Positions 10,738-29,322 of a stretch of DNA of 34,848 nt are shown here, one piece after another. A model generated the notes under the pieces. That model was not told the DNA's origin and ran no database searches. It saw only the letters and a program-made list of their open reading frames with translations. Position numbers and translations under genes: made by a program. Origin of the DNA: an uncultured bacterium. GTDB taxonomy: Bacteria > Patescibacteriota > Minisyncoccia > Phycocordibacterales > PALSA-1337. The stretch lies in contig OY969557.1 in NCBI GenBank assembly GCA_963701025.1, positions 1 to 34,848 of the forward strand, written 5' to 3'. Position 1 is the first letter of the stretch. Every line of letters starts with the position of its first letter.

Positions 10738-10765
10738 ACCTGACTTTACTTTAAAAATAATGATA

Positions 10766-10825
10766 AAGGTATGACGCAACTCGTCTTAGAAGCCTAGGGC
10801 GTCCGAATAACTCAAGGTTGGTAAT
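10766..10825. repeat. Bipartite site, degenerate copy 2 (downstream of the MmeI-like gene)
   Basis: AAGGTATGACGCA at 10766-10778 and GTTGGTAAT at 10817, spacing matching the other copies. Confidence 0.55.
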
Positions 10826-10919: not shown

Positions 10920-11024
10920 AAGGCCTTGTCTAAGCTAGGGTACTGACTAAAGCTCTTTTTTGCGCTATTATTGCCTTACAACTGAATATTAGTAGTTGAC
11001 CTAACCCTTGCGGACTTTCTGTGA

Positions 11025-11165
11025 GGCATGGTCGAAAATCCCGCTAGAGATCAAAGGACTCCTCGTCAGAGTCACTCTAGCGGGTCATACCGGGAAACTG
11101 GTATGGGCAGGGCCGAAAGGTTTTGTCGCGATGGCGAGGAGTCTTTTGACGTTCCAAGACTCCCA
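11025..11165 (+). ncRNA. Candidate structured leader RNA M1, copy 1
   Basis: 10-bp stem 11040-49/11075-84, CATACCGG-GAAA-CTGGTATG, second GAAA hairpin; same layout with different stem sequence at 32465-32582. Confidence 0.6.
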
Positions 11166-13495: not shown

Positions 13496-14767
13496 CTATT
13501 TTTGCTCCTGCGGCGGTGCCACAGGCCTGTTCTGATAGCTCTTTTTTGCTTCCGCAAGTACCCTTGATATTTCCTCCCTCGGCGGATCTTTCCGATCGAG
13601 ATCGGTAAACTGGATGCCGCGTTCCTTGTACCATCCGAAGAGCCAATCGTAGAAGTAGGTGGTCATATGCTTGTATCCCTCAGCGCTTGTAAGGGGCCAC
13701 AGAAGATCGACGTTGCCATAATAGCGTTGATAGGAGTCATCGGCGATCGTGAAGTGCGTCCGTGGAGTGTCGATCGGCACGGATATGACGAACGGCTCCA
13801 TTTGCGCGATGAGGGGAGTTTGGTATATCACTTTTTCCGGCCTGTATCTAGGCTCCCGTCCTTCGAGTATATAGGGGTTGCTGTCGTCATCATCACGACC
13901 ATCGCGGTGCCAACCCAAGATCTTCAGCAGAAACTCTCGGGTCCATACTCCTCGGGTGAAATGTCCCCTCATCCTTTCGATACTGTCGAGATCAGGAAAC
14001 CGCTCCGGCCAGAGAATGCGCCGCTCGTCGTCGAGGAGGGGGTACGCTCGAAAGATGCCGGATAGACCTTTTTCGTCAATCTTTTTCTTGAGTCTCATAA
14101 GGAGCGAATCAGGACAGATGAGATTGCCGAGGACAACGATCCGCGTTCCCTTGCTTCCAAGCGGCAAGACCTCGCTCGTCAGCCTCTGCCAGGCGGTGTT
14201 GCGGTTCGCTTCATCCTTGGCTGTCGAGGTGTCCTCGATGTCATCGCAGATGATGAGGTCAGGACGGATCGTGCCGTACTTGAGGCCGCGGATGCTCTGC
14301 TCAAGCGACACCGATTGAATCTTCGATTCGTGATACACGAGATCGAGCGACATCTTTTTCCATTCAGCCTCGTTGTCGCTGAAGGGTCCGAAGTCCGCCC
14401 GCAGGAGTTCGTTCGAGAGAAGCTCGTCACGGATACTCGTGAAGTGACTCTTGGCCTGATCCTGCGTCTGGCTGACGATGACTGCGAACTTCTTTTGTGG
14501 CTTGCCGAGGATAGACCAGAGAATGTTGCCGGTATTCATGATTGTGGACTTGCCGGATTCCCTGAATGCCATGACGGCGATGAGCTGATGTGACGGGTTT
14601 TTCAAGATGTGGCCCATCTCGCGATGGAAGGGAGCCAGGGGATGCGAGAGGTGGTGCCGCAGATAGATGAGGCAGAACCAAAGAGGATCCTCGTAGGCAA
14701 AGCGCTTCCGTAAGTTCTGGTCGGCGAGCACTCGCTTCAGTTTTTCAAGGTCAAAATCATTCGGCAT
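13496..14767 (-). CDS. Terminase large subunit-like ATPase; nuclease domain not recognisable
   Basis: AFRESGKST Walker A, LIICDDIE Walker B, VVLGN motif III, LWPERF; C-terminal part unlike an RNase H domain. Confidence 0.75.
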   Translation of the reverse strand: MPNDFDLEKLKRVLADQNLRKRFAYEDPLWFCLIYLRHHLSHPLAPFHREMGHILKNPSHQLIAVMAFRESGKSTIMNTGNILWSILGKPQKKFAVIVSQTQDQAKSHFTSIRDELLSNELLRADFGPFSDNEAEWKKMSLDLVYHESKIQSVSLEQSIRGLKYGTIRPDLIICDDIEDTSTAKDEANRNTAWQRLTSEVLPLGSKGTRIVVLGNLICPDSLLMRLKKKIDEKGLSGIFRAYPLLDDERRILWPERFPDLDSIERMRGHFTRGVWTREFLLKILGWHRDGRDDDDSNPYILEGREPRYRPEKVIYQTPLIAQMEPFVISVPIDTPRTHFTIADDSYQRYYGNVDLLWPLTSAEGYKHMTTYFYDWLFGWYKERGIQFTDLDRKDPPREEISRVLAEAKKSYQNRPVAPPQEQK

Positions 14768-15185
14768 GGTTGGTTGGGACGGAAGGACTTCCGCCGGGAG
14801 CTAGGAATTCTTTGAAGAGCTTTTCCTCCTCCGGAGTCAGTTCAGGCACGCCTGTGGCTGGTCTGCGCACATTCTTGCCGCCGTAGCGCGGATGATTGTG
14901 TTTGAGCCAGAGGGCAATAGCCGGTAGTTTGCCTTCCTTTATGAGCTGGATCACCTGGGCTTCGCTCATGTCGTTAATGAATTCGACGCCCTGACTGAGC
15001 GCATCATCGCTGTCACGACGGAATTCGTTGTCTTCGCGTCGCCAGCGATAGTAGGTGTCGCGGGAGACCCCTGCTCGCTTGCAGGCGGCCATGACAATAG
15101 GCAACTCTCTGAGCGTGTCGACGAGCTTTTGCTTGTCATCCTTCAAGCGTTTATCGATCGTCTTTTGATAGGTGTCCTTAGTCAT
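14757..15185 (-). CDS. HTH protein, terminase small subunit-like
   Basis: IVMAACKRAGVSRDTYYRW HTH then helical oligomerisation region; overlaps the TerL-like start. Confidence 0.7.
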   Translation of the reverse strand: MTKDTYQKTIDKRLKDDKQKLVDTLRELPIVMAACKRAGVSRDTYYRWRREDNEFRRDSDDALSQGVEFINDMSEAQVIQLIKEGKLPAIALWLKHNHPRYGGKNVRRPATGVPELTPEEEKLFKEFLAPGGSPSVPTNHAE

Positions 15186-16524
15186 CGATTTTCTTGGCTT
15201 TTAGGCCGGTCGCTTTTTCCCAACGATTTCTGATGACCTCGGCGTAGACGGGTGACTTTTCCATGATAAAGCATCGGCGATTCATCTTGGTTGCGGCGAT
15301 GAGCGTCGATCCGCTTCCGCCAAAGGGTTCAAGGATGAGGTCGCCACGCTTCGTCAGGACCTTAAGATAAGGGATGAGGAGCTCAATCGGCTTCGTTCCG
15401 AAGATGATCTCCTGGCCGGACGATTTCTTGTCAGCGGCAGTGTGAGTGATATGATCAGTAGGGCAGATTTTCTTGCCCTTTTCATATTTTTCCCAGTGTG
15501 GCTTGCCGGATGTGGCGAATATAGCGTTCTCGTATTCATTTTGGAGAAGCTCATCGGATTCGGGCTCGAGGTTGAGAGCGACGTCACCGCCAGTACCGAC
15601 AAGAGCGATGTCGGTTTTATTGAAGAACTTGTACTTGGCCGAGAAGTCCTGCATTCGGTTCGGCACATGCCAGGTGATGGTGTTGCGATACTTCCAATGC
15701 TTCTCGAGCTCGTTCCAAATGATGCGGAGGTTCTTCGGATTCTCGAAGATGATGATCGAGAAGTCGGGTTTCTGTACCTTGGCTACGTTCGCCATCCATT
15801 TCTCCGTGAAGTCTGGCGGCAGGACGTCGGTCTCAAGGTACCGGCGATCGTGTTTGGCTCCGAATCCTGTGACGGCGTCGCCCTGCTTCTTTTTACCCTT
15901 TAGGTAGTCAAGGATATACGGGGGATCCGTGAAAACCATGTCGGCCTTTTCATCGCCCATAAGCCGAAGCATATCTGCCTCAACGGTCGAGTCGCCGCAG
16001 GCCAGGCGGGAATCGCCGAGCGCCCATACGTCGCTTTTCTTTATTTCGATCTCGTCTATCTTGAGCTTTTTAAGCTCCTTCTCAAGATCGAATTGCTCCG
16101 GAGTCTCCTCGACGGCGAAGATCTCGTCGAGGTCTTCCGAGCTGAATCCGGCCGTCGAAAGGAATGTCTCGTCGAAAGTGGCGAGGAGATCCCAATCCCA
16201 TTCGCCGACATTTTTGTTTAAGCGGATGTTGAGTTCCTTCTCCTTCTCGATATCTGGAATGTTGATATATACGACGGGTACTTCCTTGATGCCGAGCTCC
16301 TTTATAACGGAGAGACGGAAGTGGCCGCCTATAACGATGCCCTTGCGTTCCGGCGCGGAGTTGACGAGGAGAGGGTCGACGATGCCGTACTTACTGATGC
16401 TTTCTTTGAGATCCTTAGCCGCCTCGGTACTCCAAGTTCTAGGGTTATAGGACGCGGCTTTTAGATTTGTAACGGGGACGTATTCTACGCACAAACGAGT
16501 GTCTGCGGTTGGTTTGCTTTTCAT
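15178..16524 (-). CDS. ParB-like domain fused to N4C/N6A DNA methyltransferase
   Basis: YNPR...VIGGHFRL ParB-like; FTDPPY motif IV, TKP, LEPFGGSGST motif I. Confidence 0.88.
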   Translation of the reverse strand: MKSKPTADTRLCVEYVPVTNLKAASYNPRTWSTEAAKDLKESISKYGIVDPLLVNSAPERKGIVIGGHFRLSVIKELGIKEVPVVYINIPDIEKEKELNIRLNKNVGEWDWDLLATFDETFLSTAGFSSEDLDEIFAVEETPEQFDLEKELKKLKIDEIEIKKSDVWALGDSRLACGDSTVEADMLRLMGDEKADMVFTDPPYILDYLKGKKKQGDAVTGFGAKHDRRYLETDVLPPDFTEKWMANVAKVQKPDFSIIIFENPKNLRIIWNELEKHWKYRNTITWHVPNRMQDFSAKYKFFNKTDIALVGTGGDVALNLEPESDELLQNEYENAIFATSGKPHWEKYEKGKKICPTDHITHTAADKKSSGQEIIFGTKPIELLIPYLKVLTKRGDLILEPFGGSGSTLIAATKMNRRCFIMEKSPVYAEVIRNRWEKATGLKAKKIDD

Positions 16525-17263: not shown

Positions 17264-18841
17264 TCACGGGTACTTAACCCGACTAGCCCGCAAATTCGCA
17301 AAAAGCGCGAAATCGCTCGAAAAAGGCGAAAGAGAAATACCAAGTGGAGGGCGGGGCGGAATTCCCCCCTGAAACCCCCCTTCCGCCCCGCCCGCATTTT
17401 TGTTGACCGTTTGGGGAATTGCGGGAACAAATGCGAAGGGTGCGCGGGGCGAAAAAACGAGGGTGCGGTCGCGTATGACAAAGTTCGAACCGACTTTTTG
17501 GAAAAAAGATCGGATTTTAGTAGGATCACCCTCATCTGCCACAAACTTGGCTTGCTTACTCGCTTCCAGGAAATTTTTCACTGGTTCGAACCGATTTGTT
17601 GAAACCTGTGCCAAAGATGCTAATTTGTCGTTCAGAGCATGTTTTTCAGTCACCAGTTTGTTTTTGGCATTTTGATATTCTGGAAGCGTTAGAGCGTTCT
17701 CTAGGTATGCTGTCATGAGTTTGTCGAGCTTCGAATCGACGATGGTAATTTCTGCATTCACTTTATCAGTCTCATTTTTCAGAAGTTTATCATTTTCAGA
17801 TCTATCTTTTTCATTTTCAATTATTAGCCAATCAGCTACCTCGTCAGCCAGGGAGTATTTTTTCAGTTCCGTTTGCATTTGCGAAGTGATGACCTCCTCA
17901 CGAACGTATTTTTGATTGCAAACTCCTTTTCGTTTTGTGCATCGCAAATAATTATGACCTTTTTGTGTTTCTGTGGTTATGAAGCAACCGCATTCACCGC
18001 AATGGAATAGGCCTCTGTAGTCATAAGATTTCAGTTCTGACGTTTTAGGTTTGCTTTTTCTGGTCATAACCTCTTGAACATCGTCAAAAAGCTTTTTCGA
18101 GATAATAGGTTCATGCTTACCTTCATAAAATTCTCCACCATATCGAATAAGTCCATGGTAAAAGGGATTTTTCAAAAGATATTGATAGTTGGAAATAGAA
18201 AGCACGCCATCGCCAGTGCCTTTTAGACCAAGATCATTGATTTTTCTCCTGACCTGGGCGAATGTGAAATTGCCAGTGGCATATGCCTCAAAAGTCTTTT
18301 TCACGAGTATGGATTTTACCGGATCAACGACGATAGTTTTTATCTTTTTATCATTCAAATATCCCAGTGGTGCTTTTTGAGGCCATATTCCATTCTTCAA
18401 TTTCTGTCTGTGTCCGCGTTTGATGTTCTCTGACAAGTTGTCTACATAATATTTACTCTGGCCAAAGGAGATTGAAAGCATAAATTTTCCCTGCGGAGTT
18501 GCATCAAACCAGAACGTCGGGAATTTCAGATCAGTGATCTTGCCAATATCCACAAGGTAAATGACACGACCACCATCAATGGAGTTACGAGCGAGTCTGT
18601 CAGGGTGCCATGCGAGGATGCCGGAGGCCTCACCGGCTTCTATGCGGTCCAACATTTCAGCGAAAATAGGCCTGCCAGGTACTTTGGCGGTTTGTTTCTC
18701 TATAAAAGTATCGACAACATCAATTTTTTCCTTTCTAGCGAGCTCACGCAGTTCTGCCAACTGGTCAGGCAGGCTTCTGATTTGATGATCTTTGTCATCA
18801 GTCGATTTTCTGGCGTAAATAAAATATTTTTTATCACTCAT
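17264..18841 (-). CDS. Large serine recombinase LSR2 with coiled-coil insertion
   Basis: YFIYARKST, HPDRLARN, CGECG...YLRC Zn ribbon, coiled coil; its 3' end spans the predicted crossover. Confidence 0.95.
   Translation of the reverse strand: MSDKKYFIYARKSTDDKDHQIRSLPDQLAELRELARKEKIDVVDTFIEKQTAKVPGRPIFAEMLDRIEAGEASGILAWHPDRLARNSIDGGRVIYLVDIGKITDLKFPTFWFDATPQGKFMLSISFGQSKYYVDNLSENIKRGHRQKLKNGIWPQKAPLGYLNDKKIKTIVVDPVKSILVKKTFEAYATGNFTFAQVRRKINDLGLKGTGDGVLSISNYQYLLKNPFYHGLIRYGGEFYEGKHEPIISKKLFDDVQEVMTRKSKPKTSELKSYDYRGLFHCGECGCFITTETQKGHNYLRCTKRKGVCNQKYVREEVITSQMQTELKKYSLADEVADWLIIENEKDRSENDKLLKNETDKVNAEITIVDSKLDKLMTAYLENALTLPEYQNAKNKLVTEKHALNDKLASLAQVSTNRFEPVKNFLEASKQAKFVADEGDPTKIRSFFQKVGSNFVIRDRTLVFSPRAPFAFVPAIPQTVNKNAGGAEGGFQGGIPPRPPLGISLSPFSSDFALFANLRASRVKYP
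17293..17474 (-). repeat. Arm A (182 bp), inverted copy of 19123-19304
   Basis: Core-proximal ~120 bp identical; about 9 substitutions in the distal ~60 bp (manual alignment). Confidence 0.9.
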
Positions 18842-18907
18842 GAATATATTTTACCAAATTTTTGTAAAGTCAAACAGATGTTCATAACTTTTTTCACTAA
18901 ACTCTAT

Positions 18908-19070
18908 CGAGAAGCGGTCGACTTCCGCTTTTAGCTACAAGTCCCGAGCGGATGTCGGTGCGGCGAAGCACCCAGCGGTCGCTCCAAGCGACGGCTGGGG
19001 TTTTCGTGCGGAGCCGTTCGGACATCCGCGTAAAAATATCGTTAAAGCGGAAGTGGGCCGCTTCGACTCA
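18908..19070 (+). other. Long branched hairpin M2, copy 1
   Basis: Outer 21-bp stem GAAGCGGTCGACTTCCGCTTT/AAAGCGGAAGTGGGCCGCTTC; compensatory changes relative to 29067-29231. Confidence 0.7.
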
Positions 19071-19122
19071 CTTCTTGTAATTTAATTTTTATAAAAAATT
19101 ATATTTCATTTCCTTCCCCTCC

Positions 19123-19360
19123 ACGCGACCGCGCCCTCGTTTTTTTGCCTCGCGCGCCTTTTGCATTTGTCCCCGAAATTCCCAAAACGGTCAACAAAAA
19201 TGCGGGCGGGGCGGAAGGGGGGTTTCAGGGGGGAATTCCGCCCCGCCCTCCACTTGGTATTTCTCTTTCGCCTTTTTCGAGCGATTTCGCGCTTTTTGCG
19301 AATTTGCGGCAGTTTTTACTTGAAGTTCGAACATTTTTTATGGAAAATCCTCATAATTGA
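19123..19360 (+). pseudogene. 3' remnant of an LSR2-like gene in unrecombined form
   Basis: Translates as PRAPFAFVP...LFANLRQFLLEVRTFFMENPHN*; matches the LSR2 tail up to LR; no upstream recombinase body. Confidence 0.6.
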
Positions 19361-19503
19361 AGTGAAAGAAAATGGTGTCGCTCCGCGACGCTGTTTTCTT
19401 GTGGGGTTGCGCCTTCGCTCCGCTCGGCGCGTGGAGAGGGCGTGCGCGGCAGGAGGGGTGTGGGGAGGAATGCCGCGCCGCCCTGCTGATTTTTTCGCGC
19501 GGG
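19123..19503 (+). repeat. Joined A-core-B (attP-like) copy, inverted relative to the element ends
   Basis: A 19123-19304, TGCGG 19305-19309, B 19310-19503. Confidence 0.85.
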
Positions 19504-19572
19504 GTGAAGGGGAGAAAATAAGCGGCCAATGACCTTGAATTTCTGTCAAAAAGTGATAAAGTAGCTTTATAC

Positions 19573-20184
19573 ATGAACGAAATAATCTATATACTCACGA
19601 ATGAAGCCATGCCCGGCTACGTCAAGATCGGAAAGACTACAAATAATCTTGACCAGCGCGTCAGAGAATTGAGCGCTTCTACCAGCGTTCCTTTGCCGTT
19701 TACGGTTTTCTATGCCTGTAAAGTAAAAGACGCGAAGTTCGTCGAACACCAGCTTCATGACGCTTTTGATAACAATCGGGTAAATCCTCGACGAGAATTT
19801 TTTCAGATCGCTCCGGAACGAGTAGTCGCGGCTCTAAAATTGGCGGAAATCGAAAATATCACTCCCAAGAAGGATCTGATCGAATCGGAAGAAGACCGTG
19901 AGGCTCATAAGGAAGCCCTTGAGCGGCGTGGAAGATTCAATTTTGAGCTAGCCAAAATTCCGTTGGGGGCAGAGATTTATTTCAGCCGCGATGAAAACAA
20001 AAAAGCTAAAGTCGTCGATCTGCATTCATCGCAGTCTATCGAATATAACGGAGAGATCACCAGCCTTTCAACCTCCGCCCAAAGAATCCTAGGAGCCGGT
20101 TATGGTGTAGCCGGTACAGATTACTGGATGTACGACGGCGAGACCCTCGATGAGCGCAGGAGAAGGCTTGAGAATGAAGAGTAA
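19573..20184 (+). CDS. T5orf172/GIY-YIG-like nuclease-domain protein
   Basis: IYILTNEAMPGYVKIGKT..QR..L, EHQLH, REFF. Confidence 0.85.
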   Translation: MNEIIYILTNEAMPGYVKIGKTTNNLDQRVRELSASTSVPLPFTVFYACKVKDAKFVEHQLHDAFDNNRVNPRREFFQIAPERVVAALKLAEIENITPKKDLIESEEDREAHKEALERRGRFNFELAKIPLGAEIYFSRDENKKAKVVDLHSSQSIEYNGEITSLSTSAQRILGAGYGVAGTDYWMYDGETLDERRRRLENEE

Positions 20185-20190
20185 AAATAT

Positions 20191-20424
20191 ATGGGTATAT
20201 TCAATACGAAACAATCAATTGAGGAAATGGAGAAGGACATAGATAATTGCGTTCCAGAAATGCAAAAGGTTGGAGCGATGTTTATAAATTTTAAGTTACA
20301 GAAAAAAATTATTGAGGATCAGAATGTATACAATAGTAAACAACTTTTTTGGTCTCGCTTCTTAACAATAGTTACAGCGGTTCTTGCGTTAGCAACGATT
20401 GCTTTGGTTCTAGTTACAAAATAA
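20191..20424 (+). CDS. Small protein with C-terminal transmembrane helix
   Basis: Operonic spacing; hydrophobic C-terminus LTIVTAVLALATIALVLV. Confidence 0.65.
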   Translation: MGIFNTKQSIEEMEKDIDNCVPEMQKVGAMFINFKLQKKIIEDQNVYNSKQLFWSRFLTIVTAVLALATIALVLVTK

Positions 20425-20428
20425 TTTT

Positions 20429-21559
20429 ATGGCAAGTAAATCTTCAAATAAAAATTTACATAAGGCCAGCGAAGCAAAGAAAGATGAGTTTTATACCCAG
20501 CTTGTTGATATTGAAAAAGAACTCAAGCATTACAAGGAACAATTTCGTGGCAAGGTTGTCTATTGCAATTGTGATGATCCATTCGAGAGTAATTTTTTTA
20601 AATATTTTGCCGCAAATTTTAATGCTCTCGGTCTCAAAAAGTTAATAACTACCAGTTTTACAAAGTCACCAATTGCCGGAGGACAATTGCCACTTTTTGA
20701 AGTCAAAGGCTTGAAACCGAAAGGTAAAGAGCCATTTAAGATTGAAATCAATGAAGTCCCAGATTCTAATTCTGATGGCGCCATCGGTCTCTCTGATGTC
20801 GAATGGCTGTTAAGGCACGATGCGAATGTTTCTACGCCACTCAAAACAGATGGTGATTTTCGTAGTGAGGAATGTATTGAACTGCTAGATGGGGCAGATA
20901 TTGTTGTAACTAACCCGCCATTTTCTCTGTTTCGGGAATATCTAGCGCAATTGGTGGAATTTAATAAGAAATTTCTCATTATCGGTAATGTCAATTCAAT
21001 TACCTACAAAGAGTGCTTTAAACTTATCAAAGATAACAAAATGTGGCTTGGAGCAAGTATTCACAGTGGTGATCGTGAGTTTCGAGTGCCGGACGATTAC
21101 CCTCTAAATGCTGCTGGTTCTAGGATTGATAGTGATGGTCATAAATATATCCGCGTCAAAGGAGTACGTTGGTTCACTAACCTAGACTACGAAGAACGTC
21201 ATGAAGATTTGGTGCTCTATAAAAAATATTCTCCAGAAGAATATCCGAAGTATGAAAACCATGATGCCATTAATGTTAACAAAACTTCCGAAATCCCAGT
21301 TAATTATGCTGGTGCAATAGGTGTACCGATTACTTTTCTCGATAAATATAATCCAGAACAGTTTGAGATTATTGGACTAGGTATATCAAATTCAGGAAAA
21401 GAGATTGGGGTTAAGCCGTACAAAGCAGAACATAAAAAATACAGGAAGGAAATTCAAAAAAGAGGTGCTGTTGATGGTGACTTATACATGATTACGAATG
21501 GAATCGTTGATGTTCCTTATGCACGAGTTATTATAAAAAATATGAAAGTATTAAAATAA
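20429..21559 (+). CDS. EcoRI-methylase-family adenine MTase
   Basis: KKDEFYT, VYCNCDDP..SNF, GDFRSEEC, VVTNPPFSLFREY, GVPITFLDKYNPEQFEI. Confidence 0.88.
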   Translation: MASKSSNKNLHKASEAKKDEFYTQLVDIEKELKHYKEQFRGKVVYCNCDDPFESNFFKYFAANFNALGLKKLITTSFTKSPIAGGQLPLFEVKGLKPKGKEPFKIEINEVPDSNSDGAIGLSDVEWLLRHDANVSTPLKTDGDFRSEECIELLDGADIVVTNPPFSLFREYLAQLVEFNKKFLIIGNVNSITYKECFKLIKDNKMWLGASIHSGDREFRVPDDYPLNAAGSRIDSDGHKYIRVKGVRWFTNLDYEERHEDLVLYKKYSPEEYPKYENHDAINVNKTSEIPVNYAGAIGVPITFLDKYNPEQFEIIGLGISNSGKEIGVKPYKAEHKKYRKEIQKRGAVDGDLYMITNGIVDVPYARVIIKNMKVLK

Positions 21560-21560
21560 T

Positions 21561-22667
21561 ATGAAAATTGATTTACATAAAATTTCAATCCGCAAGATAA
21601 TAGTTGGCTATAAAGACAGTGCCGAAGAAGGTGTGACTGCTTATAACGGCAAACTTGATATTCGTCCAAAATATCAGCGTGAGTTTGTGTACAAAGAAAA
21701 ACAACGTGATGCAGTAATAGAAACAATCAAAAACAACTTTCCGCTAAATGTGATGTATTGGATGATTAGGGATGATGGTGGTTATGAAGTGTTGGACGGC
21801 CAACAACGCACCATCAGTATTGGTCAATATGTTAGTGGAGATTTTTCACTGAATGACCGCTTTTTTCATAATCTTACCAAAGAGGAGCAGGATAAAATTT
21901 TAGATTATGAACTAATGATTTATTTCTGCGAGGGTACCGATAAAGAACGGTTAGATTGGTTCAGAATAATTAACATCGCCGGCGAGAAGCTGACCGACCA
22001 AGAGATTCGCAACGCGGTTTATACTGGGCCGTGGCTTTCTGATGCCAAATTGAAATTCAGTAAATCGAATTGTGCGGCATACTTACTGGCGAACGACGAC
22101 GGCCAGTTGGTTAGCGGTTCCCCGATTCGCCAAGAGTACTTAGAAACCGCGCTCTCGTGGATCAACGATGGCAAAATCGAAGATTACATGGCCAAGCATC
22201 AACACGACAAAAATGCCGACAAATTGTGGCAATATTTTCAGGATGTCATTGTCTGGGTAAGGACGACATTCACGAATTACCGTAGAGAAATGAGTAGTGT
22301 ACAGTGGGGCGAGCTGTATAACCAATTCAAGGATAAAAAACTGAATGCCACAAAGCTTGAAGCCGAGGTCAAAAAGCTGATGCAAGATGAAGATGTCACC
22401 AAAAAGTCCGGCATATACCCATATATTTTGACGAGAGACGAGAAGCATCTCTCGATTCGTGCTTTCACAGACAAGATGAAGCGTGAGGCATATGAAAGAC
22501 AAGACGGGATCTGTCCGTTTTGTAAAGCTGAGAACAGGAAAAAGAAATGGGAAATTGAGGAAATGGAGGCCGATCACATTACACCTTGGCACGAAGGAGG
22601 AAAGACGATAGCAGAGAACTGTCAGATGCTCTGTAAGCAGGACAACCGGACTAAATCTGGGAAATAA
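21561..22667 (+). CDS. DUF262 (GmrS-like) + C-terminal HNH endonuclease
   Basis: KYQRE and LDGQQRT DUF262 motifs; CPFC...EADHITPW..GG.T...NCQMLC...N HNH. Confidence 0.88.
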   Translation: MKIDLHKISIRKIIVGYKDSAEEGVTAYNGKLDIRPKYQREFVYKEKQRDAVIETIKNNFPLNVMYWMIRDDGGYEVLDGQQRTISIGQYVSGDFSLNDRFFHNLTKEEQDKILDYELMIYFCEGTDKERLDWFRIINIAGEKLTDQEIRNAVYTGPWLSDAKLKFSKSNCAAYLLANDDGQLVSGSPIRQEYLETALSWINDGKIEDYMAKHQHDKNADKLWQYFQDVIVWVRTTFTNYRREMSSVQWGELYNQFKDKKLNATKLEAEVKKLMQDEDVTKKSGIYPYILTRDEKHLSIRAFTDKMKREAYERQDGICPFCKAENRKKKWEIEEMEADHITPWHEGGKTIAENCQMLCKQDNRTKSGK

Positions 22668-22669
22668 AG

Positions 22670-24037
22670 ATGATCAGCATGAATACCGAGAATTCAAAAT
22701 GGAAGAAAAAGAACTTAGCGATAGGAGATCTTTCATTGTGGGATGAAAATGCCCGTTTTTCTGATCAATACTTCGGTCTTTTAGAAGAAGATTTGCTGAA
22801 CTATTTTCTGACTGGAAAATTTCATGTTCTGAAGTTAGCAAGTGAGATGGAAAAAGACTCTGACCTTCCTCAATTAGAAAAAATTGTGGTTTGGAATGCC
22901 AACGATCGCAATGTGGTGCTCGAAGGTAATAGAAGAATCGCTGCATATAAACTGTTGGCAAATCCTAAACTGGCTGGTGCTCAGGGGGATAAATTCGCTC
23001 AGATAGGATCAAAAATCGGTATCTCGGAGGATTTTGAAGTTGAATGTCTTGTGACCGAAGACCTAGAACAGGGCTATCGGTTTATCGAGAGAAAACATCT
23101 GAATCAAAATAACGAAGTATCCTGGGGGTCTAATGAAATTGCCCATCATAAAGAGCGACGTGGCAAAGCTGGCGAGAAGGAATTGATAAGGGTTGGTATC
23201 ACGAAGGTTGTCAGTGGCCTTGGAATAGCTAAGGAGCTAAAAGAAGCGGTGCTTGGTCCGGGTTACGTGACTACTTTCTGGAGATTAACTGGCCAGACTC
23301 CTGCTCAGGAATTTTTCGGTTATTCTTTTGATAATGATAAAAAACTAAAGGTAAAAGATAGTAATTTCGGTAAGAAGCTTGAGGTCATTGTCTGGGATGT
23401 ACTCAAGAGCGGCCAACACAATGGAAAATTATTCTCTCGCTTGAACAACAAAGAGATACATGATTATTTGAAAAATATTTCTGATAAGGATTATGATAGG
23501 GCGGCAAATGAGATAAAGGTAGCGGAGAGTAAAAAGCAGGACGGCCTTTTTGGTCAATCGGGCATAACTACGGAATACAACTTTAGAAGGAAAACGCCAG
23601 TTACAAAAACGGGGAATGATCTTTTCGGCAGAACTCTTGTTCTACAGACAGGAAAGGTCAATGACATGTACCGAGCTCTTGTAGATATCGATAAGAAATC
23701 CCAAAACAATGACGCGGTATTGCCGTTCCTAGGCATGGCACTCCGTCTTTTAGTAGAAGTCGCCGCGCGCGTGTATTATGAGAACCAGAAAGATGGTAAG
23801 AATGCTAAGAAGGATCAGGTTTGTGAGATGTTTCTCAAAGAAGCCAAGAAAGAACTTAAACAACACCAGAAAAATGATATTTCGCTCACTAATGAATGGC
23901 TTTCTGATCAGAGAAATCTAGGAGCGATTCTAGATAAATATGCTCACGGAAGCATTATCTGTAAGCGTGCTGATGTATTGAAAGACTCTTTTATCGTAGC
24001 TGATATTTTGGATTTCTATTTCGGAAAGAAGTCATAA
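22670..24037 (+). CDS. ParB/Srx-like N-terminal domain + helical C-terminal domain (HEPN-like, motif degenerate)
   Basis: LWDENARF, VVLEGNRRIAA; C-terminal LRLLVE...LDKYAHG; directly upstream of a Dam-type MTase. Confidence 0.65.
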   Translation: MISMNTENSKWKKKNLAIGDLSLWDENARFSDQYFGLLEEDLLNYFLTGKFHVLKLASEMEKDSDLPQLEKIVVWNANDRNVVLEGNRRIAAYKLLANPKLAGAQGDKFAQIGSKIGISEDFEVECLVTEDLEQGYRFIERKHLNQNNEVSWGSNEIAHHKERRGKAGEKELIRVGITKVVSGLGIAKELKEAVLGPGYVTTFWRLTGQTPAQEFFGYSFDNDKKLKVKDSNFGKKLEVIVWDVLKSGQHNGKLFSRLNNKEIHDYLKNISDKDYDRAANEIKVAESKKQDGLFGQSGITTEYNFRRKTPVTKTGNDLFGRTLVLQTGKVNDMYRALVDIDKKSQNNDAVLPFLGMALRLLVEVAARVYYENQKDGKNAKKDQVCEMFLKEAKKELKQHQKNDISLTNEWLSDQRNLGAILDKYAHGSIICKRADVLKDSFIVADILDFYFGKKS

Positions 24038-24042
24038 ATTTT

Positions 24043-24897
24043 ATGCAAAAAATACCACAAACAAGAAATCAAAAATTTCACTATAGCCCATTACGATATC
24101 CTGGCGGAAAGACTTTCTTGTTTCCTTTTTTTGATGATGTTATAAAGACTAACGGGTTGAAAAAAGTCACTTATGTCGAACCATTTGCTGGTGGTGCAGG
24201 TGCTGCTCTTGCTCTGCTATTATCTGGAAAAGTCGACCGTATTGTGATCAATGACTTGGATAACGCCATTTTTGCTTTCTGGAAATCTGTAGTCTTTGAT
24301 TCAGTCAAGTTTATTAAAAAAATCAGATCTACCCCCGTTACGATCAGGGAATGGAGGAGGCAAAAAGCGATTTATAATGATCCGAAAGCCGGTCTATTTA
24401 ATCTTGGCTTCGCGACTTTTTTCCTCAACAGAACCAATACTTCTGGTATTCTGAACGGTGGACCCATTGGCGGATTGAAACAGCAGGGGAAGTATAAGAT
24501 TGACGCAAGATTCAATAAAGAAGCGTTAATCGAGCGAATACAAAAGATTGCTTTTTATAAAGATAAGATATCGGTCTTTAACAAAGATGGTGTTAATCTT
24601 ATTGGTGAGTATTTGAATAAAAAGAATGCTTTCATATATCTTGATCCGCCTTATTTTGAAAAGGGTGCTAGTCTTTATCTGAACCATTATAAAAAAGAGG
24701 ATCATGAAGCTCTTGCACGGAAGCTCAACGGTAACCCAGATGCTTTTTGGCTTCTGACTTACGATAATAAGAAAGAAATTAAAGCGCTTTACCCAGAGCG
24801 AAAAATCATTAACTTTTCTCTGAATTACAATGCTTACATATCTCGAAAAGGCAGAGAGCTGATGATTCTTTCTGACATCTTTGCAAAACAGATATGA
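24043..24897 (+). CDS. Dam-family (D12 class) N6-adenine MTase
   Basis: SPLRYPGGK, YVEPFAGG, FFLNR, YLDPPY. Confidence 0.92.
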   Translation: MQKIPQTRNQKFHYSPLRYPGGKTFLFPFFDDVIKTNGLKKVTYVEPFAGGAGAALALLLSGKVDRIVINDLDNAIFAFWKSVVFDSVKFIKKIRSTPVTIREWRRQKAIYNDPKAGLFNLGFATFFLNRTNTSGILNGGPIGGLKQQGKYKIDARFNKEALIERIQKIAFYKDKISVFNKDGVNLIGEYLNKKNAFIYLDPPYFEKGASLYLNHYKKEDHEALARKLNGNPDAFWLLTYDNKKEIKALYPERKIINFSLNYNAYISRKGRELMILSDIFAKQI

Positions 24898-25193
24898 AAC
24901 CAGAATCCAAACAGGAAATCTTGAAGCGACGGAAAGAGCTCGAGCAAGAACTCGTGGAGATGCTAAAGGAGACCGAAAGCGATTTTGAGCTTGCCGATGT
25001 GCTCGAAGCCATATACGAAGAAGAGGAGAACGACGATATGACGAAGATCATAGCCATGTTCGACAACGGCGACATGAGCCAATTGAGCAATGTCCTCGAA
25101 CTGGTTACCGATGCTTGGAACTATTTCCCCCATAAAGCTCTCGGCAGGATATCCCCGGCGGAGATGATGGTGGAGTATAATCATAAGCAATGA
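24894..25193 (+). CDS. Small acidic hypothetical protein
   Basis: ATGA overlaps on both sides; AWNYFPHKALGRISP resembles Xre/MbcA-type C-termini (weak). Confidence 0.65.
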   Translation: MKPESKQEILKRRKELEQELVEMLKETESDFELADVLEAIYEEEENDDMTKIIAMFDNGDMSQLSNVLELVTDAWNYFPHKALGRISPAEMMVEYNHKQ

Positions 25194-25834
25194 GCACCAA
25201 CATCGATTATTGGGAAAAAGTCCTTGAGAATCCGACGCCTGCGTTCAAGGCTCTTTTTGACGCTGAATTGATTTACATTCGGTCGCGCGTTCCCGGGAAT
25301 TCCAGAGTTCTTGAGATCGGTTGTGGCAACGGCAGGAATATCAAATCTATAGCTGAAGTGACCAAGGACATCATCGGAATCGACAACGATTCGAAAGCCG
25401 TGGAAGACGCAAAGAATAATCTGGCCGGATTTTCAGGCGTAAAGATAATGCTGGCCGACGCTCTCGATCTGCCATTTGCGGATAAATCTTTTGACGTCCT
25501 GATATTCCTAGATACTCTGGTCAACATGAAAGAAAACAAAGTTCAAACATTGAAGGAGATGAGCAGGGTGTTGACGGACGCCGGCAAAATAATCATCAGT
25601 GTGTATTCCGAGGATGCTTTCGACGCACGCATGGACATTTACAGGATAGTGAATGCTCCCATAAACAAGACCGAAGGTACGAAAGTCACGTTCGATGAGA
25701 GCCTGGCGGCGAATGTATCGGAGCAGTTTAGCAAAGAAGACATAGAGGGCTTGGCCGATCAGTCTGGATTGAATCTTGTCGATTGTAAAAAAGTGCCAGG
25801 AATCGCGTATATTTGTACGCTTGTTAAAAAATAA
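25190..25834 (+). CDS. Class I SAM-dependent methyltransferase
   Basis: VLEIGCGNG, GID, ADALDLPFADKSFDV, RVL...G. Confidence 0.88.
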   Translation: MSTNIDYWEKVLENPTPAFKALFDAELIYIRSRVPGNSRVLEIGCGNGRNIKSIAEVTKDIIGIDNDSKAVEDAKNNLAGFSGVKIMLADALDLPFADKSFDVLIFLDTLVNMKENKVQTLKEMSRVLTDAGKIIISVYSEDAFDARMDIYRIVNAPINKTEGTKVTFDESLAANVSEQFSKEDIEGLADQSGLNLVDCKKVPGIAYICTLVKK

Positions 25835-25836
25835 AA

Positions 25837-25874
25837 CCCGCCTACGGTTAGAACGTAGTGCGGGTCGTGACATT
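25837..25874. repeat. Hairpin direct repeat CCCGCYTACG..GAACGTA..GCGGGNCGTGACATT; probable terminator at this copy
   Basis: Second copy at 27540-27576; this copy has a T-tract on the minus strand. Confidence 0.7.
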
Positions 25875-25903
25875 GATGATCTAAGTTTCGAGCACGCTGG
25901 TGG

Positions 25904-26068
25904 TTATATATACCCCTCCAAACTTCGCCGCAACCGAGCAGTTGCTCGGTCGTTGGCTTTTGTGTCGGGGGTAATGTCCGTGATATGGCGAGCTACGCCC
26001 TTACGGAGCGCTTTAAAATGTGCTCCCACAAAGTCCGTATTTGAGGCATGTAATCTGCGATTTTTCAT
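25904..26068 (-). CDS. Possible small basic protein (54 aa)
   Basis: ATG 26068 after an A-rich leader; fits the gene/leader periodicity of this block. Confidence 0.35.
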   Translation of the reverse strand: MKNRRLHASNTDFVGAHFKALRKGVARHITDITPDTKANDRATARLRRSLEGYI

Positions 26069-26187
26069 TCTTACGAGATAGGGTTTCTTTTTTCTTTCCG
26101 TAAGCTGCACTATTGCCGTGCCCTCGAGCGTAACTGAACAAAGTCTCATGACAACCCCATGGAGACTTGTTGAAGGTAATTTTGTTT

Positions 26188-26829
26188 TCACAGATTTCCT
26201 TTCATTTCTTTCGGTTGATGGTTGATTCGCCGCATGACTAATCCTAAGAGCGGCACCGACGAGTGAAGCAGAACGCAGTTTACCTGATATACAAGGTCAC
26301 ACCACTGGTTGTTCCATCGCAGAAAAACTACAATGGTCGCCAGGACGTAACTTGTTACCCACAGTAACCACGGTCTTGGTTGTTCACATTCCCACGGTCG
26401 CGGATTTTCCGCGGTCGGTCTTTTCGTCAATGCTCGCCACATTGGAATGAATCCTGCGAAGATGGCGAACTGGACGATCAGATTGGCGTATTTGGCGGAG
26501 CCGTAGTGTTTCCACACGACCGACGCGATGACGCCGATCAGCAGAGCGACGAAGTCCCACTTGTCCGGCCACTTGAATTTCTTCAGATAGACGGCGAGGA
26601 AGAACGTCGCGATGCACAAGCCGATGTTGAGGAGCGGAATGACGCTTTTCCAAACGTCCCCGCTCATCTTTAGATAGCTCGTGGTTGAGATTGCCGAGAC
26701 GACAGACCAAATGAGCCAAGTGGCACCATTCGGTTTCGTCGCGCCCTTGATGACCTGACGATTGTAGTCGAGGTAGGCAAGGGTATAGGCGACGCCGGAG
26801 GCAATCGCCAGTATATGGCTGATTTGCAC
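26188..26829 (-). CDS. Multi-pass membrane protein
   Basis: GTG start after GAAAGG; about 6-7 hydrophobic segments; two PQ-loop-like halves (weak). Confidence 0.75.
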   Translation of the reverse strand: MQISHILAIASGVAYTLAYLDYNRQVIKGATKPNGATWLIWSVVSAISTTSYLKMSGDVWKSVIPLLNIGLCIATFFLAVYLKKFKWPDKWDFVALLIGVIASVVWKHYGSAKYANLIVQFAIFAGFIPMWRALTKRPTAENPRPWECEQPRPWLLWVTSYVLATIVVFLRWNNQWCDLVYQVNCVLLHSSVPLLGLVMRRINHQPKEMKGNL

Positions 26830-26872
26830 AAGGTGCCTTTCGTTATAGGTTTATGTTGTTGTCAGAGAGCGA

Positions 26873-26915
26873 AACTCTCAGGGGCCGCGACCTAATGTCG
26901 TAGACCCATTAGAGT
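26873..26915 (-). promoter_or_regulatory. Conserved leader hairpin M3, copy 1
   Basis: Minus strand ACTCTA.TGGGT..ACGAC-loop-GTCGCG...CCTGAGAGTT; repeated at 27496-27539 with compensatory stem changes. Confidence 0.6.
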
Positions 26916-26960
26916 GCCCCACATTACTGTGAGGCCGAGATTACTTCAATCTCGAAAGTG

Positions 26961-27455
26961 TTATGAAACTGAAACCAGCGGATGAGAAGCACAGTAGGCT
27001 TCGATCTCGTCGTGGCGCTTCTTCAACTGGTATGCAGCCTGTTGCATTGCTTGTTCATCGCTGTCTTGGCCATGGCCCCAGTTGTCCCTGAATGGGATGG
27101 CTGTTCCAGCGTAGAGAACATCTCCAGGCTTGTCGCCAATGCGGATAGAAATCCTCGCCGCAGTTTCCAGCTGGTATTCACCACCAGGATTTCCACGGAT
27201 GGGACACGTGCCACAAATGGTGACGAGTTCCCATTCAATTGTCCCTGCCCACCACCCCATCTCTTTTTCTAGGAGTAGGGCAAGCTTGGTCCAATTGGCG
27301 AACATTTCACCAAGGTGTTCCGGTGTCGGAACTACATCCTTCCAAGCTCCTGTAGCAGGCATAAACATGCCAGGGAGTTTTTTCCACCAATCACCATCGT
27401 ATACGATACCCTGCGGAGGTGTCACCGTGCGATGGCTCATTGTTGTTTTTAGCAT
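26961..27455 (-). CDS. Hypothetical protein
   Basis: 164-aa ORF, GAAAGG upstream; no motif recognised. Confidence 0.7.
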   Translation of the reverse strand: MLKTTMSHRTVTPPQGIVYDGDWWKKLPGMFMPATGAWKDVVPTPEHLGEMFANWTKLALLLEKEMGWWAGTIEWELVTICGTCPIRGNPGGEYQLETAARISIRIGDKPGDVLYAGTAIPFRDNWGHGQDSDEQAMQQAAYQLKKRHDEIEAYCASHPLVSVS

Positions 27456-27495
27456 ACTTTAACCTTTCGTTGTTGATTGTTGACTCAAAGAACTG

Positions 27496-27539
27496 AACTC
27501 TCAGGATTCGCGACGGAAGTGTCGTGAACCCAGTAGAGT
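27496..27539 (-). promoter_or_regulatory. Conserved leader hairpin M3, copy 2
   Basis: Same motif as 26873-26915. Confidence 0.6.
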
Positions 27540-27576
27540 CCCGCTTACGATTCGAACGTAAGCGGGGCGTGACATT
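27540..27576. repeat. Hairpin direct repeat, copy 2
   Basis: 10-bp perfect stem CCCGCTTACG/CGTAAGCGGG; matches 25837-25874. Confidence 0.7.
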
Positions 27577-27584
27577 TTTGTGTT

Positions 27585-28274
27585 CTAAGGAGCGATTGGC
27601 CAGCAGTATTCGTTAGCTGGATTGTATGTCCACCAAGACGGTGACCAATTCATTGATACTGCCACCGAAACCAATGCGAGGACAACGAGCGAAGCTGCCG
27701 GAGCATACCAACCCCACATCTGCATCTCCTGTCTGGCCTGGAAGACTGCTTTGCCAATGGCCGAGAACTCGACCGGACAAAATGAAGATTTCCAGATGCC
27801 AGTGAAGAGTAGGCGGTCACTCTTGCATTCAAGCGCTTCGAATCGCCAAGTGCAGAGAGCTTTCCCTCTGATTACTCTGCGATCAGCAAGGATGAAACGG
27901 CAATAGAATCTCATGCCGACCCTGACCGGATGCTTGAAGTCCACTTCCTCGTATCTTGAGGCGATGACCTCCGCTCTTTCGACGAACCGAAAGAACCGGT
28001 GAACACATGCCTTTGTCAGAGAAAGTGCCAAATCCCCGCAGAGTGTAAGACCACCGAGATCGGACTTATACAACAGAGCAGTGAACGGATTGATGTGAAC
28101 CGGATTCCAGTCACGATCAATGATTGCATGCAAGATTAGTTTCCACAGGCTGGCGCGCACGGGCTTGCATTGCCACGTGTGCCCGATGGGGACCTTTGCC
28201 AGATCCGAGGCGTTGTTGAGAATGAGTGTTTTCAAAATTATCTCCTGTTTGTTTTGGCGGATTTTAAGCTCCAT
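27585..28274 (-). CDS. MaoC-like hotdog-fold dehydratase with C-terminal TM helix
   Basis: DWNPVHIN motif, VDFKHPVRVG strand; start ATG 28274 (the longer ORF start lies within the promoter). Confidence 0.7.
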   Translation of the reverse strand: MELKIRQNKQEIILKTLILNNASDLAKVPIGHTWQCKPVRASLWKLILHAIIDRDWNPVHINPFTALLYKSDLGGLTLCGDLALSLTKACVHRFFRFVERAEVIASRYEEVDFKHPVRVGMRFYCRFILADRRVIRGKALCTWRFEALECKSDRLLFTGIWKSSFCPVEFSAIGKAVFQARQEMQMWGWYAPAASLVVLALVSVAVSMNWSPSWWTYNPANEYCWPIAP

Positions 28275-28298
28275 GTAGAGCACCAAAACTCTGTCGCA

Positions 28299-28327
28299 AT
28301 TATAGCATAACAGCATAGTAAAGTCAA
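28299..28327 (-). promoter_or_regulatory. Near-consensus sigma70 promoter
   Basis: TTGACT-N17-TATAAT with extended -10 TG. Confidence 0.75.
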
Positions 28328-28376
28328 GCAAAATCGAGGCTTAAAATAATGGCTATTTTGGACTATAATTGAAGCC

Positions 28377-28979
28377 ATGGATGATCAAAATACGCCTATA
28401 GAGCCAGCCACAGAAGCACCAGCGCAGGCTCAAGAATCTGCCCCAACTCCTATTGAGCCGGAATCTAGCCAGCCAAATGGCTCTACGCCTACCGATTTGC
28501 CCCCTGAGGCCCCAGAATCGCCTATAAACGCTTCTAGTGATACTCCCGTTGAAGATCAAAATCAAGGGGTAAACCAGCCAGAAAGCAACACCCCAGAAGA
28601 GCCAATTTCTACTCCAAATGAGCCAGAAAATCCAGTAGATGATCAATCAGCTCCAGTGCAATCTGTACCTGTCTCAGCGCCGACGCTACAGACTCCGACA
28701 GCCTCACAACCACAACCGTCGGCGCTGGAGAACCAGACCAGCTTCATCCGCGCACTTCTCGCTAAAGCGAACGCAAAACTTGGTTCAAACAGACAAAAGA
28801 AGCTCGACAAGGTTATGCTGACAGCACAAAAGAAAGGATTCATAACCAACGAACAAGCTCAAGAACTTCTGCATTGCTCCGATGCCACTGCCACTAGATA
28901 TCTTTCAAAATTGGTTCAGCAAGGAAGATTGAATCGCACAGACGGATCGCACTGGGTGAAATATATTTTTGTGCGCTGA
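28377..28979 (+). CDS. C-terminal wHTH protein with long Pro/Glu/Ser-rich disordered N-terminus
   Basis: ITNEQAQELLHCSDATATRYLSKLVQQGRL DeoR-like HTH. Confidence 0.8.
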   Translation: MDDQNTPIEPATEAPAQAQESAPTPIEPESSQPNGSTPTDLPPEAPESPINASSDTPVEDQNQGVNQPESNTPEEPISTPNEPENPVDDQSAPVQSVPVSAPTLQTPTASQPQPSALENQTSFIRALLAKANAKLGSNRQKKLDKVMLTAQKKGFITNEQAQELLHCSDATATRYLSKLVQQGRLNRTDGSHWVKYIFVR

Positions 28980-29044
28980 ATCTTGCGGCTCAGATGGTCA
29001 AACCTCTTGCGGATCAAATGGTGGATTTGAGCCGCAAGGTTTTC
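28979..29044. repeat. Iterated operator-like block R1 (2 direct + 1 inverted CTTGCGGMTCARA)
   Basis: Near-identical block at 29251-29315. Confidence 0.8.
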
Positions 29045-29066
29045 TAGATTTCTTTCTTCTTTCAAC

Positions 29067-29231
29067 CGAGAAACGGTCGACTTCCGCTTCTCACCACGAG
29101 TTCTGAGCGGATGTTTGTGCGGCGTAGCACTGCACGGTCGCCTCGGGCGACGGTGCAGGTTTCCGTGCGAAGCCGTTCTGACATCCGCGTAATGACTTTA
29201 TCTGAAGCGGAAGTGGGCCGCTTCGAGTCAC
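29067..29231 (+). other. Long branched hairpin M2, copy 2
   Basis: Covarying copy of 18908-19070. Confidence 0.7.
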
Positions 29232-29250
29232 CGGACTTTCATGCTAGGAT

Positions 29251-29315: not shown

Positions 29316-29322
29316 CTAAATA

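Follow-up and report, generated by a model that had tools for sequence, protein, structure and literature searches.

Large serine recombinases (LSRs) are thought to need just two short duplex sites, and they are prized as genome-editing tools. Integron attC sites and the folded (+) single-stranded DNA (ssDNA) attP of CTX phage are crossover points of tyrosine recombinases, and the bridge and seek RNAs of the IS110 family are structured elements that lie beside the recombinase gene at the noncoding end of a mobile element. The ultra-small bacteria of the candidate phyla radiation (CPR) depend on DNA uptake. The attC sites have been discussed in PMC5737381, an orientation-specific single-strand origin (sso) is present in the integrative element ICEBs1 (PMC4595007), and the LOOT motif (RF03000) has been reported with unusual cross-covariation (PMC7657543). 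Here, we describe M2, a long hairpin found twice within an integrated LSR element of an uncultured bacterium (Patescibacteriota; Minisyncoccia; assembly GCA_963701025.1, contig OY969557.1, positions 1 to 34,848); this whole stretch of 34,848 nucleotides is referred to as the window. M2 is a real, well-supported, and undescribed motif family of long hairpins, built into an LSR mobile element of CPR bacteria. A preliminary description of the locus had proposed a four-way fold with DNA mini-hairpins, selected on single-stranded DNA. The mini-hairpin structure is wrong; selection of the fold on ssDNA is the best-supported reading, unproven and advanced here tentatively.

The M2 hairpin family

Both hairpin copies noticed in the preliminary description are present on the + strand, and they fold far better than chance:

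18910 to 19069, + strand: M2-A, the LSR-linked copy; covariance model (CM) match of 152 bits, fold z = -7.6; same place upstream of LSR2 orthologs in 18 loci
29069 to 29229, + strand: M2-B, the "solo" copy, downstream of a winged helix-turn-helix (wHTH) gene and close to the element's right end; CM match of 148 bits
Basal stem P1 of M2-A: 5' arm GAAGCGGTCGACTTCCGCTT, 3' arm AAGCGGAAGTGGGCCGCTTC

These two share 86% column identity, and no further copy occurs in the window. On the + strand, the RNA fold of M2-A reaches -93.7 kcal/mol, with none of 200 shuffles equally stable, and on the - strand it reaches -77.7 kcal/mol. The compensatory changes reported earlier (CCAGC/GCTGG vs TGCAC/GTGCA, and TTT/AAA vs TTC/GAA) are found in the alignment of both copies.

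Pattern scans, together with a CM built from the first matches, yielded 46 M2 homologs, every one of them on Patescibacteria/CPR contigs: Parcubacteria, Saccharibacteria, Minisyncoccia, Taylorbacteria, Nomurabacteria, and unclassified bins. The metagenome pattern scan returned mostly chance matches (3 real in the first 100/120 loci), and loci L211 to L230 lie outside the CM scan. A search of the whole window against Rfam 15 at the gathering threshold found LOOT elsewhere and no match to M2; a permissive scan of 18700 to 19300 gave nothing above 24 bits, and ten related loci with 13 M2 copies gave tRNA and tmRNA only. M2 is also unlike a miniature inverted-repeat transposable element (MITE), because its copies hold two fixed positions: 41 of the 43 full copies stand at one of these places within LSR elements, and orientation relative to the flanks is constant in all copies. 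Solo copies number 22, M2-B included, with the same gene family upstream of each.

Minimum free energy folding and RNAalifold alike return a single continuous hairpin, and the covarying structure is likewise one continuous, irregular hairpin, nearly invariant in its 21-bp base and variable at the apex. In the 46-sequence alignment, which was fitted to the model so that its pairing figures lean towards it, 96.4% of cells form standard pairs, compared with 34% to 44% when the partners are slid by 1 to 3 columns; these slid controls agree with the model. Double-sided changes occur in 27 of 44 pairs, and none of 500 shuffles reaches any observed measure. An independent RNAalifold run on a MAFFT alignment of 14 sequences agrees with the CM result (13 of 44 pairs compensatory). 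Across the family, P1 has 21 bp, GAAGCGGTCGACTTCCGCTTC with GAAGCGGAAGTGGGCCGCTTC, identical in 39 to 42 of 42 copies at most pairs, and each of its arms is itself a dyad (GAAGCGG-N7-CCGCTTC). Above P1, asymmetric junction strands with conserved sequence are followed by several freely changing helices; an apical domain is long in the 190-nt copies and absent from copies of 134 to 145 nt.

The comparison made in the preliminary description was with d(GCGNAGC) DNA mini-hairpins, two of which were placed opposite each other in the four-way fold. The strings named there exist, GCGAAGC with GCGGAGC in copy A and GCGTAGC with GCGAAGC in copy B. The two additional GCGGAGC assigned to "arm B" exist as well, at 29403 and 29440 (mirrors of 19380 and 19417), in a repeat arm of the element. 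Where the mini-hairpins had been placed, there is a GGC/GCC helix with a purine-rich internal loop as its cap (GAA/GGA and variants); in short copies this loop is terminal, for example GGC-GATTA-GCC. The putative mini-hairpin bases pair long-range and covary (columns 64 to 68 with 167 to 171). Lack of conserved GNA triloops in homologs had been named there as a refuting outcome, and this is what the family shows: GCGNAGC occurs on both sides in only 6 to 7 of 43 homologs, and 26 of the 43 have no such motif. The other two refuting outcomes named, a match to a known Rfam RNA or to a MITE, did not occur. In the window, GCGNAGC is only mildly enriched (25 matches vs 15.2 +/- 4.4 expected). Since the motif is not conserved, the continuous hairpin covaries, and short copies have no apical domain, the four-way model is rejected. 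M2 resembles the mini-hairpins in its conserved GGC/GCC helix capped by G.A-type purine mismatches and in the literal strings of some copies; it differs in that most copies lack the strings and the bases concerned pair over long range.

One divergent copy, L084 7173 to 7346, has all four P1 half-sites changed together (GGGCGCAT.../...ATGCGCCC). It forms the tip of a hairpin of about 320 nt (7113 to 7425; DNA fold -106 kcal/mol, z = -13), lies outside the neighboring LSR2 element, and adjoins two open reading frames (ORFs) without a Pfam match.

Architecture of the element

Both M2 copies lie inside an integrated element at 17288 to 29521, in which the order is arm a-bar, LSR2 (leftward), M2-A, the internal arms a.b, cargo, the wHTH gene, M2-B, and arm b-bar:

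17264 to 18841, - strand: LSR2, large serine recombinase (Pfam Resolvase, Recombinase, and Zn_ribbon_recom; NCBIfam CcrB/XisF-like)
18848 to 18856, - strand: LSR2 promoter, extended -10 TGGTAAAAT, present in 18 of 18 LSR-linked loci, 60 to 103 nt left of M2
17288 to 17474: arm a-bar, left element end, 187 nt, 95% complementary to 19123 to 19309, beginning with the core CCGCA (17288 to 17292)
19123 to 19309: arm a, internal, beginning 54 nt past M2-A
19305 to 19503: arm b, internal, 199 nt, 100% complementary to 29323 to 29521, with the core TGCGG (19305 to 19309) and a conserved AAGTTCGAAC palindrome
29323 to 29521: arm b-bar, right element end, terminating with the core CCGCA (29517 to 29521)
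19204 to 19248 (a) and 19439 to 19483 (b), mirrored at 17349 to 17393 (a-bar) and 29343 to 29387 (b-bar): GC-rich hairpins with 13-bp stems and G-rich 19-nt loops
28377 to 28979, + strand: orf200, the wHTH gene, with a low-complexity N-terminus and a C-terminal wHTH (weak DeoR/MarR/AbiEi HTH matches)
28979 to 29049, + strand: first copy of the motif H/D6, a 10-mer direct repeat plus hairpin CTTGCGGATCA..TGAGCCGCAAG, directly past the orf200 stop codon
29242 to 29250, + strand: outward promoter, extended -10 TGCTAGGAT, just past M2-B, with the P1 3' arm at roughly -50 to -30
29251 to 29321, + strand: second copy of H/D6, 87% identical to the first, between the outward promoter and b-bar

A core of 5 to 6 nt is repeated at both element ends, with the crossover core at the outer ends of the repeat arms. 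In related loci, a tRNA-Gln gene (L029, L061, and L010) or a tRNA-Ser gene (L072) lies just outside a-bar, and the last tRNA bases overlap the arm. L074 contains the right end that corresponds to the L029 element; there, b-bar is followed by the core CAGCAA, which is shared with the tRNA-Gln attL in L029. From these ends, and from CCGCA at both ends of the present element, the boundaries 17288 and 29521 follow. The left flank of the window element holds no recognizable RNA gene. Taken together, the loci display the marks of LSR integrative elements: the LSR domain set, the 3' end of a tRNA-Gln, tRNA-Ser, or tmRNA gene abutting a-bar, and a short core at both ends. The tmRNA case, L153 3880 to 10172, is a sister element whose LSR shares 41% identity with LSR2. 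Integrated at the 3' end of the tmRNA gene, it keeps both inverted-repeat pairs (131 nt at 92% and 197 nt at 98%) and the orf200-M2 module, without an M2 on the LSR side.

Junction alignment across loci identifies a.b as the reverse complement of the b-bar|a-bar junction expected on circularization, and the element therefore keeps an intact, inverted spare attP. The unit of a-bar, LSR, M2, and a.b recurs in 11 further loci with arms 92% to 99.5% identical. M2 precedes a repeat arm by 20 to 95 nt, both copies being on the same strand, and it is intact in integrated elements, about 240 to 290 bp from the crossover core. Peat-metagenome DNA runs contain related strains only, with unitigs that break exactly at 19124, 19303 to 19309, and 19503; one RNA-library contig joins arm a to tRNA-like sequence. 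Literature searches turned up no description of this architecture, that is, an LSR within long inverted repeats, an internal inverted attP, and a cargo repeat pair; its interest equals or exceeds that of the hairpin.

The LSR2 ORF extends through a-bar to the element end, so that its last ~65 residues are a low-complexity translation of the arm. Orthologs with 62% to 93% identity show the same divergent arrangement beside 18 M2 copies, and an exact-protein look-up of LSR2 gave no match. The ATG is 7 nt downstream of the extended -10, and the LSR2 mRNA is therefore of the leaderless type.

The solo position has a composition of its own. A gene of the orf200 family lies ~68 nt upstream of, and co-oriented with, all 22 solo copies (neighbor clustering), and H/D6 sits between this gene and M2, usually recurring after M2. 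Homologs of orf200 at 59% to 62% identity in ordinary chromosomal loci keep H/D6 and have no M2; an obligatory pairing of M2 with the wHTH protein is rejected on this ground. Beyond M2, a TGnTAnnnT motif points outward through b-bar from a distance of 9 to 24 nt in 20 of the 23 to 24 solo copies scanned and in 0 of 18 LSR-linked copies. We found no conserved promoter directed into M2 on either strand; the LSR and outward promoters both point away. A terminator scan found no intrinsic terminator at M2, whose flanks carry no T-run.

Several observations concern the arms and repeats themselves. H/D6, seen also at L231 6400 to 6470, consists of two direct 10-mers and one inverted 10-mer that yields a 9- to 11-bp hairpin; its loop (ATGGTGGA/TCCACCAT) is DnaA-box-like and varies in orientation among loci. 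A T-run follows each GC-rich arm hairpin on one strand only, the b hairpin (19439 to 19483) included, and the hairpins would act as terminators for opposite strands, flanking the attP core. ORFs at 19161 to 19532 (+ strand) and 29228 to 29506 (- strand) are built from repeat-arm sequence and are probably not genes; one repeat-arm ORF carries a copy of the LSR2 tail (residues 457 to 518) and a terminator-like hairpin. Just beyond the right end, a near-consensus sigma-70 promoter, TTGATA-16-TATAAT (29638 to 29665, - strand), is directed into b-bar.

Strand asymmetry and its explanations

With RNA parameters, the + strand of M2 folds more stably than the - strand in 41 of 42 copies, and DNA parameters give 42 of 42; when only the variable interior is folded, the counts are 39 and 40 of 42, respectively. 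Departures from Watson-Crick pairing in the stems are similarly one-sided: 83 G.U vs 18 A.C cells (30 of the 83 at one P1 position) and 39 purine-purine vs 8 pyrimidine-pyrimidine mismatches. The same asymmetry appears in arms a and a-bar, which are 1.65 kb apart. Read on the + strand in 11 loci, they hold 89 substitution mismatches and 7 gap positions; by type, there are 33 GA/AG, 17 GT/TG, 13 GG, 7 TT, 6 AA, 9 AC/CA, 2 CC, and 1 TC. This gives 63 G-containing vs 12 C-containing mismatches. Nearest-neighbor data rank mismatches that contain G as the most stable and those that contain C as the least stable; the distribution follows this stability order on the + strand and the inverse order on the - strand. 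Polarized against other loci, changes from pyrimidine to purine on the + strand predominate by 12:0 in the noncoding arm and 8:2 in the coding arm. The skew at four-fold sites is modest (0.59 purine) and tracks gene orientation. It seems too weak to explain the pyrimidine-to-purine ratio, and a replication-type compositional bias is rejected as the source of the asymmetry.

Homogenization of the repeats is selective. Inverted arms are 92% to 100% identical within an element and 72% to 90% identical between elements, whereas homogenization does not extend to the pair of direct M2 copies within an element (interior identity of 35% to 79%). Unique segments keep the same orientation in all 15 loci, and flip-flop inversion is rejected as the homogenizing mechanism. 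Since inverted arms are homogenized, direct copies are not, and no inversion was seen in these loci, intrastrand pairing fits better than reciprocal recombination.

Single-stranded + strand DNA is the simplest molecule that would let M2-A, M2-B, and the a/a-bar arms all pair within one strand. On this basis, we tentatively propose that M2 is a cis-acting, sso-like hairpin of the + strand in its single-stranded form. On such a strand, a-bar would pair with a, and b with b-bar; the element ends would be brought side by side on the internal a.b "splint," rebuilding a duplex attP. Each M2 would then stand at the 3' end of a single-stranded loop as a predicted sso-like signal that recruits RNA polymerase, a primase, or a primosome, and complementary-strand synthesis could proceed from it, as it does from single-strand origins, to copy the LSR gene or the cargo. 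Recognition may take place at the invariant basal stem. In the sister element L153, M2 is kept only on the cargo loop, which extension from an annealed 3' end could not copy; this is exactly where the model needs internal priming, and we count it in favor of the ssDNA reading. The source of single-stranded + strand DNA can only be guessed at: transformation, a host type IV secretion system (T4SS), or the lagging-strand template. A passage of PMC12102498 attributes conjugation-type T4SSs to Patescibacteria.

The preliminary description had argued for selection on a folded single strand. The strand-specific fold, the G-type mismatches, and the lack of a promoter into M2 support that part of its argument; its preference for ssDNA over RNA is unproven.

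Several points weigh against the ssDNA reading. A Pfam scan of all element ORFs found no relaxase, Rep/HUH protein, or primase, and to our knowledge serine recombinases are known only on duplex DNA. The hallmarks of ssoA are missing, as CS-6 (TAGCGT/A) occurs in 1 of 46 copies and the stem has no -35/-10 pair. An Frpo-type ssDNA promoter, with its -10 inside an extended stem, was considered and rejected because the flanks show no pairing with each other (z about 0 in 22 of 23 loci). G.U pairs and G.A loops fit RNA equally well, solo copies are co-oriented with the upstream gene, and unstranded metatranscriptome contigs touch the M2 edges. In L153, the a arms show no mismatch bias (4 vs 4, a small sample; 3 vs 0 in the b arms), and strand-biased mutation could account for part of the mismatch asymmetry. 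It is the missing ssDNA-generating enzyme, the missing ssoA hallmarks, the duplex-only recombinases, and the indirect nature of the evidence that keep our confidence in the proposal low.

An extended version of the ssDNA proposal is unlikely in our judgment. Under it, this serine-recombinase integrative element would have to pass through a single-stranded stage: the + strand, as a linear copy taken up by the naturally competent host, for example, or sent via a T4SS, would fold through the two homogenized inverted-repeat pairs and rebuild attP on the a.b splint; M2 and self-priming from the 3' end would start the second strand, after which the recombinase would be expressed and the element integrated at a tRNA or tmRNA gene. 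If true, such a stage would constitute a new route for the establishment of DNA after uptake, with neither homology nor a replicon.

A doubtful but serious alternative is that M2 is a structured noncoding RNA (ncRNA) from the + strand, a counterpart of LOOT that regulates expression of the recombinase or cargo, or the 3'-end processing or stability of the wHTH mRNA. Strong covariation, G.U pairs, and purine-rich internal loops (tandem G.A) on one strand are what an RNA would display, but an RNA would not explain why arms separated by 1.65 kb share this strand-specific spectrum of mismatches. All 22 solo copies follow the same co-oriented gene at ~68 nt, as a 3' element of its mRNA might; yet a terminator-like hairpin precedes the solo copies, the outward promoter comes right after them, and LSR-linked copies have no co-oriented upstream gene. 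Neither a conserved promoter upstream of M2 on either strand nor a U-tract terminator after it was found, and a-bar has a + strand terminator-like hairpin with a T-run. LOOT holds the equivalent place beside LSR1 and LSR3, the two other LSR genes of the window, which favors a regulatory RNA; M2, however, shows no guide-like complementarity to the att junction. RNA-library contigs of related strains contain M2 parts joined to arm a; M2-B is covered in no RNA run, and the depth of M2-A does not rise above its flanks in these unstranded contigs.

Rather improbable, to our mind, is that M2 acts as double-stranded DNA, its 21-bp dyads serving as operators for a dimeric wHTH protein or the recombinase and controlling the outward and LSR promoters, possibly via a cruciform. 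Each P1 arm is indeed a dyad, and the divergent L084 copy (7173 to 7346) alters all four half-sites together; the interior, however, preserves complementarity and not sequence, and an operator or cruciform predicts no strand bias, whereas the + strand is favored in nearly all of the 42 copies. In 20 of the 23 to 24 solo copies scanned, the 3' arm of P1 covers about -50 to -30 relative to the conserved extended -10 promoter, and M2 stands between outward-facing promoters, where transcription would create negative supercoiling. On the LSR side, by contrast, the distance from M2 to the promoter varies (60 to 103 nt), and these copies lack the outward promoter. The wHTH gene is a constant neighbor of solo copies; as its homologs always have H/D6 and sometimes lack M2, H/D6 is the likelier wHTH site.

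Very improbable is a selfish or neutral palindromic repeat of the MITE or enterobacterial repetitive intergenic consensus (ERIC) type, its "compensatory" changes arising by quasi-palindrome template switching: M2 is an imperfect palindrome with several copies per genome, often near contig ends, and H/D6 repeats flank the solo copies, but this reading is rejected given the two fixed positions of 41 of 43 full copies, flanks free of target-site duplications, two positional lineages that both retain the fold after diverging to 35% to 79%, conserved asymmetric junction sequences, and a 21-bp base that stays invariant while LSR proteins diverge to 62% and repeat arms to ~75%.

Neighboring features and comparison with known systems

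The cargo (19573 to 25834) is a defense-type island encoding T5orf172, GmrSD-N plus HNH, a 455-residue protein of no known kind, a Dam-like methyltransferase, and a SAM methyltransferase; it also has an EcoRI-like adenine methyltransferase without an obvious partner endonuclease. Other elements carry a surface protein of roughly 950 residues. Just left of the element, 13496 to 16524 (- strand) holds phage- or plasmid-like genes, among them a weak terminase GpA ATPase match, an HTH protein, and ParB-N fused to an N6/N4 methyltransferase.

Two LOOT motifs, at 10998 to 11127 and 32441 to 32560 (both + strand; 81 and 92 bits), are upstream of and divergent from the paralogous LSR1 (6554 to 7885) and LSR3 (30986 to 32504), mirroring M2-A beside LSR2. 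A 34-nt repeat, D8 (7914 to 7947, 10765 to 10798, and 32320 to 32353), immediately precedes the starts of LSR1 and LSR3. The repeat at LSR1 is duplicated, with one copy on each side of an MmeI-type restriction-modification gene (7978 to 10737); this gene looks like a cassette that entered between LOOT and the LSR promoter. LSR3 (- strand) is split into overlapping ORFs (30986 to 32068 and 31911 to 32504), both matching LSR1 at 68% to 84% identity; a frameshift or pseudogene is probable.

An LSR family with a spare inverted attP, homogenized inverted repeats, and strand-specific hairpins would imply an unrecognized step in the life cycle, involving ssDNA or an associated RNA. Such a step would bear on how CPR bacteria gain defense islands and surface proteins. 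With M2, a structured element other than LOOT is now associated with LSR genes, and should M2 prove to be no more than an RNA or an operator array, it would still be a new and well-supported motif family that deserves a place in Rfam-type resources.

Among known systems, the single-strand origins come first: ssoA and ssoU of rolling-circle plasmids, sso1 of ICEBs1, and the ssi or primosome assembly sites. Like these, M2 is an imperfect hairpin of 130 to 200 nt that is apparently specific to one strand, has a conserved basal segment and a variable remainder, is borne by mobile elements (an integrative one included; PMC4595007), and stands at the 3' side of a stretch that would need copying. Its strand-specific fold and fixed orientation appear to agree with those of ssoA. 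In contrast to these origins, the M2 element has no Rep, relaxase, or primase, and its partner is an LSR; membership in ssoA is rejected, as CS-6 is practically absent (1 of 46 copies) and the stem is not promoter-like.

The integron attC sites and CTX attP share with M2 a strand-specific hairpin whose sequence is conserved at the stem base alone, below an apex of variable length; these sites also lie downstream of, and co-oriented with, a gene. In those systems a duplex site is rebuilt by intrastrand pairing, as it would be here via the long arms and not via M2. M2 is internal and intact and is not a crossover point, the crossover core being at the outer arm ends, and only serine recombinases were found; identity with integron attC is therefore rejected. 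The IS110 bridge and seek RNAs resemble M2 as structured elements next to a recombinase gene at a noncoding element end. They differ in recombinase family, and M2 has neither a promoter directed into it nor a locus-specific att match. A bridge-RNA-like guide is rejected, since the longest shared or complementary word between the M2 interior and its own att junction is 6.9, against 6.6 for other loci.

LOOT is built of several hairpins, with GNRA-type loops, and M2 of one long hairpin; they have no sequence or structural similarity, the LOOT model does not match M2, and they accompany different LSR families (35% identity). Nevertheless, both are confined to CPR-type genomes and lie upstream of, and divergent from, an LSR gene, and the cross-covariation of LOOT is reminiscent of the dyad arms of P1.

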